From IMG/VR virus record IMGVR_UViG_2568526473_000003: a stretch of DNA of 49,798 nucleotides; one strand, given 5' to 3'. The stretch is from a virus (lineage: Duplodnaviria > Heunggongvirae > Uroviricota > Caudoviricetes). The position numbers and the translations under genes were made by a program. Positions 10,947-11,036 of the stretch are shown here, piece after piece (the stretch's first letter is position 1; every line of letters starts with the position of its first letter). The notes under the pieces were generated by a model that saw nothing but the letters and a program-made list of their open reading frames with translations, made no database searches and was not told where the DNA came from.

Positions 10947-11012
10947 TATCACCGCAAGGGATAAATATCTAACACCGTGCGTGTTGGCTATTTTACCTCT
11001 AGCGGTGATAAT
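10947..11012. promoter_or_regulatory. Right operator: OR3 (10947-10963), OR2 (10970-10986), OR1 (10994-11010) with pRM and pR (-35 TTGGCT 10984-10989, -10 GATAAT 11007-11012)
   Basis: Three 17-bp lambda operator sites between divergent cI and cro; OR1 reads TACCTCTAGCGGTGATA. Confidence 0.85.
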
Positions 11013-11036
11013 AGTTGCATGTACTAAGGAGGTTGT

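Follow-up and report, generated by a model that had tools for sequence, protein, structure and literature searches.

The closest described systems to the locus analysed here are lambda itself (NC_001416) and several wild phages that share its immunity. In the lambda immunity group, the right operator region (oR) consists of three 17-bp operators overlapping the divergent promoters pR and pRM, the tripartite oL overlaps pL, and DNA recognition is carried out by the CI and Cro proteins. Phages HK244 and HK542 (EF120457 and EF120458, from the set of Degnan et al. 2007) carry A at position 8 of OR1, A directly after the pR -10 hexamer, and the substitution T3A in cI; their pR -35 hexamer is the canonical TTGACT and residue 90 of CI is E. 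The wild phage CL707 (EF120459) also has A at OR1 position 8, together with TTGACT as the pR -35 hexamer, GATAATG at the -10, an A>G change in OR3, the cI substitutions K71N and G125V, and a boxA that reads GGCTCTTA; a 906-nt bstA-type gene is located downstream of its cI.

The window, i.e., the whole stretch of 49,798 nucleotides analysed here (IMG/VR record IMGVR_UViG_2568526473_000003), is a lambdoid genome. According to BLAST comparison with phage records, its genes are arranged in prophage order, namely, recombination genes, N, cI, cro, cII, O, the gene of a DnaB-type helicase, Q, and the lysis genes, followed by a lambda-like head/tail module. The ORFs for replication, lysis, head, and tail are all uninterrupted, and judging by its sequence the window is apparently an intact wild prophage of the lambda immunity group. 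Prophage decay was considered as an explanation for the window and was rejected, since these ORFs are unbroken. The 2.2-kb immunity region is 98.5% identical to that of CL707 over its full length; lambda (96.8% identity) and HK244/HK542 (about 98%) match it only at the conserved flanks. In the cI-to-N slot, which is occupied by rexAB in lambda and by other accessory genes in HK244 and HK542, the window contains the same 906-nt gene as CL707. The encoded protein (301 aa) was identified as the abortive-infection defence protein BstA (PADLOC PDLC02356, E = 1.3e-105), and the cassette is the same as that annotated in CL707 as the “hypothetical protein” CL70704. A local Pfam scan of BstA gave no match; the precomputed annotation lists PF26567 (BstA_C).

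In the replication module, a lambda-type O gene (11821-12720) is paired with a DnaB-family helicase gene (12695-14146, plus strand; Pfam DnaB and DnaB_C), which stands in for lambda P. At the left end of the window (1-2489), a host gene of the pectinesterase family (427 aa, ybhC-like by size and family) adjoins a lambda-type integrase of 356 aa with an arm-binding domain. The presence of these two genes at the left end points to the classical lambda attachment site, or its vicinity, as the probable place of integration.

The region 10900-11060 of the window was aligned to NC_001416, and feature coordinates were carried over from the annotated CL707 record (EF120459). The features of the immunity region are as follows (window coordinates, strand, description).

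8911..8941, minus strand: nutL, with boxB at 8911-8925 and boxA at 8934-8941
8974..9043, minus strand: pL/oL, with the start at about 8974, the -10 hexamer at 8981-8986, and the -35 hexamer at 9004-9009
8983-8999, 9007-9023, and 9027-9043, minus strand: OL1, OL2, and OL3, identical to lambda
9231..10136, minus strand: bstA defence gene in the cI-to-N slot, in the place of rexAB in lambda; context lying outside the operator
10223..10936, minus strand: cI, encoding the repressor of 237 aa, with 235/237 residues as in lambda CI
10934-10936, minus strand: cI start codon, with a leaderless start at 10936
10943..10971, minus strand: pRM promoter, with the -10 hexamer at 10943-10948 and the -35 hexamer at 10966-10971, identical to lambda
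10947..10963, plus strand: OR3, TATCACCGCAAGGGATA, identical to lambda
10970..10986, plus strand: OR2, TAACACCGTGCGTGTTG, identical to lambda
10984..10989, plus strand: pR -35 hexamer, TTGGCT instead of lambda TTGACT (10987 A>G), a rare allele
10994..11010, plus strand: OR1, TACCTCTAGCGGTGATA, with A at position 8 (11001) instead of lambda G
11007-11012, plus strand: pR -10 hexamer GATAAT, identical to lambda
to about 11019, plus strand: pR discriminator and start, AGTTGC instead of lambda GGTTGC (11013 G>A)
11037..11237, plus strand: cro, with ATG at 11037

The window has the three 17-bp operators over divergent pR and pRM that characterize the lambda immunity group, with operator spacers of 7 bp and 6 bp as in lambda, and exactly three bases between cI and cro differ from NC_001416 (10987, 11001, and 11013). 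The 7-bp spacer between OR2 and OR1 starts with base 10987, which is located outside both operators and is at the same time position -51 of pRM. Base 11001 is the only position at which OR1 differs from that of lambda. Base 11013 is the first one after the pR -10 hexamer, which gives GATAATA in the window vs. GATAATG in lambda. The sequence-only reading had named these three differences from lambda (TTGGCT, OR1, and the base after the pR -10); the alignment bore out each of them, the reference lacking the window bases at all three positions. In total, 8 differences from lambda were found in 1178 aligned bases (10223-11400), 3 of them in the 100-nt intergenic region and 5 in the other 1078 nt, which comprise cI, cro, and downstream sequence (Poisson P about 0.013). 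This enrichment is mild, and it is expected because all three sites are unconstrained or recurrently polymorphic in the wild population.

The regulatory proteins are nearly the same as in lambda. Cro (66 aa) is identical to lambda Cro at 66/66 residues, and CI (99% identity) differs from lambda CI only by T3A and E90K (Met1 numbering), both located outside the helix-turn-helix. By sequence, the DNA-recognition features of both proteins are therefore those of the lambda immunity group. HK244 cI corresponds to the window cI minus E90K. A literature search for cI E89K gave no match. Residue 89 of mature CI is presumably located on the solvent face of helix 5, and we expect E90K to be near neutral.

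The left operator shows the tripartite arrangement overlapping pL, and both pL hexamers, like OL1-3, are identical to those of lambda. At base 8980, directly after the pL -10 hexamer, a G>A change is present on the sense strand, and it is the same kind of change as that found at pR. The nutL boxA reads TGCTCTTA on the sense strand vs. CGCTCTTA in lambda. The initial claims on this side of the immunity region fared unequally. The statement that oL is unchanged is right for OL1-3 and the pL hexamers and had missed base 8980; the T in place of C at the start of nutL boxA was confirmed against lambda, as were T3A and E90K in cI. Among lambda-type nutL sites, boxA begins with C in 16 cases, with T in 14, and with G in 10, this base being freely polymorphic in wild phages. 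In addition, the nutR spacer between boxA and boxB (window position 11258) reads CACATCCCA, whereas that of lambda is CACATTCCA; the window form is common in the wild, with 18 of the sampled loci vs. 37.

Allele frequencies were estimated for lambda-type right operators gathered from IMG/VR by two pattern scans, of which 124 were tabulated; 40 metagenome contigs served as an independent comparison set. A at OR1 position 8 (11001) was found in 76/124 viral contigs (61%) and in 27/40 metagenome operators (68%), and A at 11013 in 22/124 (18%) and 8/40 (20%), respectively. In the 124 operators, naturally varying bases of oR are found only in the pR discriminator, in the spacer separating OR2 from OR1, and at positions 8-12 in the centres of the operators; OR1 itself varies at position 8 only. 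As for published wild lambda-immunity phages, A at OR1 position 8 together with cI T3A is present in six of the seven, and A at 11013 occurs in HK244, HK542, and mEp332. The cI residue A3 is the majority wild allele (93/111), and so is the window allele at 8980, position -6 of pL (81/96). At 11001, at cI residue 3, and at the base -6 of pL, it is thus laboratory lambda that has the less common type; at 11013, the majority base G is that of lambda, and the window has a common minority allele. Plaque-forming and lysogenising phages of lambda immunity demonstrably tolerate A at 11001, A at 11013, and cI T3A. The significance of OR1 position 8 was judged from these population frequencies and from the GenBank records of wild phages: the sole operator change in the window is central and represents the majority natural allele carried by lysogenising wild phages, which would speak against an operator-constitutive (vir-type) mutation lowering the binding of the repressor.

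Residue 3 of cI and OR1 position 8 are strongly associated (Fisher P = 1.5e-8). Their co-adaptation was considered and rejected, since the two sites are 65 bp apart, A3 is found with both OR1 alleles (75 sequences with A and 29 with G), and the sequences are related by descent. Because A3 goes with both OR1 alleles, the pairing of T3 with G8 in lambda is attributed to linkage over these 65 bp.

A separate observation concerns the lambda haplotype itself. The exact lambda-reference oR was found at 24/24 in a series of loci from GTDB representative genomes (L191-L215), which belong to unrelated genera, including Shewanella, Pseudomonas, Desulfovibrio, Helicobacter, Mycobacterium, and Enterococcus. 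Several of these contigs are about 48.4-48.5 kb long and have coverage near 1x (about 10x or unstated for two of them). This looks like contamination of the assemblies with laboratory lambda DNA.

The two remaining differences of the window are rare. The cI substitution E90K was found in 0/109 other intact cI sequences; it is specific to the window lineage, and the exact window cI protein is present in at least 24 public contigs from several sources. Of 5426 complete E. coli genomes, about 620 possess this oR, and a 41-mer search able to match only when G is present detected the TTGGCT hexamer in 3. The hexamer was absent from the first 92 viral contigs and from the phage GenBank records, and G at 10987 was found in none of the metagenome contigs (0 vs. 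47 with A) and in none of the representative genomes (0 vs. 25 with A). A literature search for TTGGCT in connection with lambda gave no match. Three viral contigs read TTGGTT. Altogether, at least five different oR/cI backgrounds with G at 10987 are represented, comprising the window lineage, strains 2013C-3342, 2013C-4974, and S1-CAM-02-A, and the three TTGGTT viral contigs. Since the carriers differ in their oR and cI backgrounds, this change arose or was recombined several times. The same multi-background pattern is seen at 10978, 10990, 10991, 11013, and 11014, so homoplasy or recombination is general at spacer and discriminator sites of oR and is not special to 10987.

Taken together, the oR of the window is likely best described as the HK244/HK542-type haplotype with a rare pR -35 change (TTGACT>TTGGCT), accompanied by cI E90K, in a phage that would be homo-immune with lambda, with a weaker pR and a quieter prophage. 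The oR is not identical to the HK244/HK542 haplotype and is a one-base derivative of it, A10987G being the only extra change. Overall, the sequence shows natural allelic variation of an ordinary kind, with one promoter-down candidate, the pR -35 A>G.

The hexamers of pR remain close to the sigma-70 consensus. According to a consensus scan, TTGGCT-17-GATAAT has 9/12 matches vs. 10/12 in lambda, and the sequence with its 17-bp spacer still scans as a predicted promoter. The 10987 A>G change at position 4 of the -35 hexamer would move pR away from TTGACA and probably lowers its strength. A parallel is provided by the integron promoter Pc, in which PcIn42 (TTGGCA) and PcS (TTGACA) differ by the same A>G at -35 position 4 with the same 17-bp spacer, and the change is a strong down mutation: in the isogenic comparison of TTGACA with TTGGCA, the only one found for this substitution, lacZ expression dropped roughly to that of the weak variant, compared with which the strong one was about 25-fold higher (PMC2791841). 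Pc is unrelated to pR, lacks operators, and has a weaker -10 (TAAACT), and the 25-fold size may not carry over to lambda pR, which is strong and has a better -10 that may buffer the change. The 11013 G>A change would remove one of the two G bases in the upstream part of the lambda PR discriminator that are contacted by sigma region 1.2 (bioRxiv 10.1101/2022.04.18.488589), and in this way would add to the weakening of pR; its effect must be modest, because the allele is common in viable phages. Together, the -35 and discriminator changes would make pR several-fold weaker, possibly more, with wide uncertainty. A severe pR defect abolishing lytic growth is not indicated, since numerous assemblies contain the lineage and the prophage appears intact.

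The predicted consequences for the switch follow from promoter strength. After derepression, a weaker pR would reduce the output of Cro, CII, O, the replicative helicase, and Q. The net result would be a quieter, more stably repressed prophage, in which basal pRM would be relieved from pR interference and immunity would be unchanged. Because base 10987 is located outside OR1 and OR2, its change should leave the recognition by CI and Cro unaltered. The positions of the operators contacted by CI and Cro are unchanged according to the sequence comparison; since Cro is also unchanged and the CI differences are outside the helix-turn-helix, homo-immunity with lambda is expected, as it is from HK244 and HK542, whose OR1 and discriminator alleles are those of the window. 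In the CI-bound state, the alpha C-terminal domain of RNA polymerase is located near -54 of pRM (PMC1874639), and 10987 A>G, at -51, may have a small effect on pRM. The expectation of the sequence-only reading that the OR1 and pR -35 changes alter repressor affinity and pR strength is thus retained in part: a lowering of pR by the -35 A>G is plausible, but base 10987 is outside the operators, and at OR1 position 8 it is A that predominates in the wild.

The lambda PR mutant library of Lagator et al. 2017 includes A>G at residue 18 (PMC5481185). In that dataset, the numbering of the fluorescence table mismatches the mutant-identity table, rows due to share a single mutant differ in value, and some single-mutant means differ by a shifted digit only, with the same standard deviation. 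Because of the numbering mismatch, no value of the library can be assigned to residue 18 A>G. A study of CI binding to the operators of related phages (PMC10742460) concerns hetero-immune Stx phages and contains no data on the alleles discussed here. A terminator-like hairpin at 10969-10987, which A10987G makes one G-C pair longer, was also considered and rejected, as it is located upstream of the pR start and no transcript with a U-run after it is known.

Other explanations of the three oR differences were weighed against this description. That one or more of them is a sequencing or assembly artefact might be suspected from the fact that the complete RefSeq E. coli genomes contain no 100% match to the 201-bp stretch across oR. 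This explanation is refuted by the assembly ERR5355767, obtained from an independent read set and identical over all 201 bp; moreover, the exact cI with E90K recurs in the public contigs mentioned above and each single allele was seen elsewhere, and we regard an artefact as extremely improbable. According to another explanation, the three changes act jointly and re-tune the switch to a lysis-lysogeny set point different from that of other lambda-immunity phages, the OR1 base altering the affinity for CI and Cro and the pR bases altering promoter strength. All three changes are indeed real and lie within OR1 and core elements of pR, and the density of differences from lambda between cI and cro exceeds that of the aligned flanks about 6-fold. 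However, the OR1 and discriminator alleles are common in viable lambda-immunity phages and do not set the window apart from the majority of related phages, only position 8 tolerates change within OR1, and the pairing of T3 with G8 in lambda is accounted for by linkage. Joint re-tuning is accordingly considered very unlikely.

The pR -35 change taken singly could also be adaptive, i.e., selected to lower spontaneous induction, maybe co-adapted with cI E90K, at a site hit repeatedly in independent prophages. The occurrence of G at 10987 on at least five backgrounds is in line with such attenuation, both rare derived changes of the window lineage fall in the switch, and the prophage is otherwise intact and carries the host-beneficial bstA. 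On the other hand, the multi-background pattern is shared with the five other oR sites listed above, and at least one TTGGCT carrier fits relaxed selection: in strain 2013C-4974 (NZ_CP027587, 527168-533208; locus L096), the prophage is decaying, its helicase gene being truncated and followed by an IS3 transposase. We consider adaptive attenuation unlikely. A more specific version, in which a recurrently selected “quieting” A>G cuts pR several-fold, lowers spontaneous induction, and is balanced here by CI E90K, seems similarly unlikely. If true, it would represent a natural compensated re-tuning of the lambda switch through promoter strength and not through operator affinity. The reading favoured here remains that of a natural HK244/HK542-type haplotype with a rare, probably weakening, pR -35 base.

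Beyond the rare TTGGCT allele, the finding is an ordinary one, and the allele itself is unlikely to surprise a specialist. For the lambda immunity group as a whole, it means that textbook lambda carries a minority haplotype of its own group at OR1 position 8, at the base after the pL -10, and at cI residue 3, and that a difference from the lambda reference should be called a mutation only in the light of its frequency in the population. The natural TTGGCT hexamer in an otherwise intact prophage would offer a cheap and defined test of how much pR strength is tolerated by the lambda circuit in the wild.
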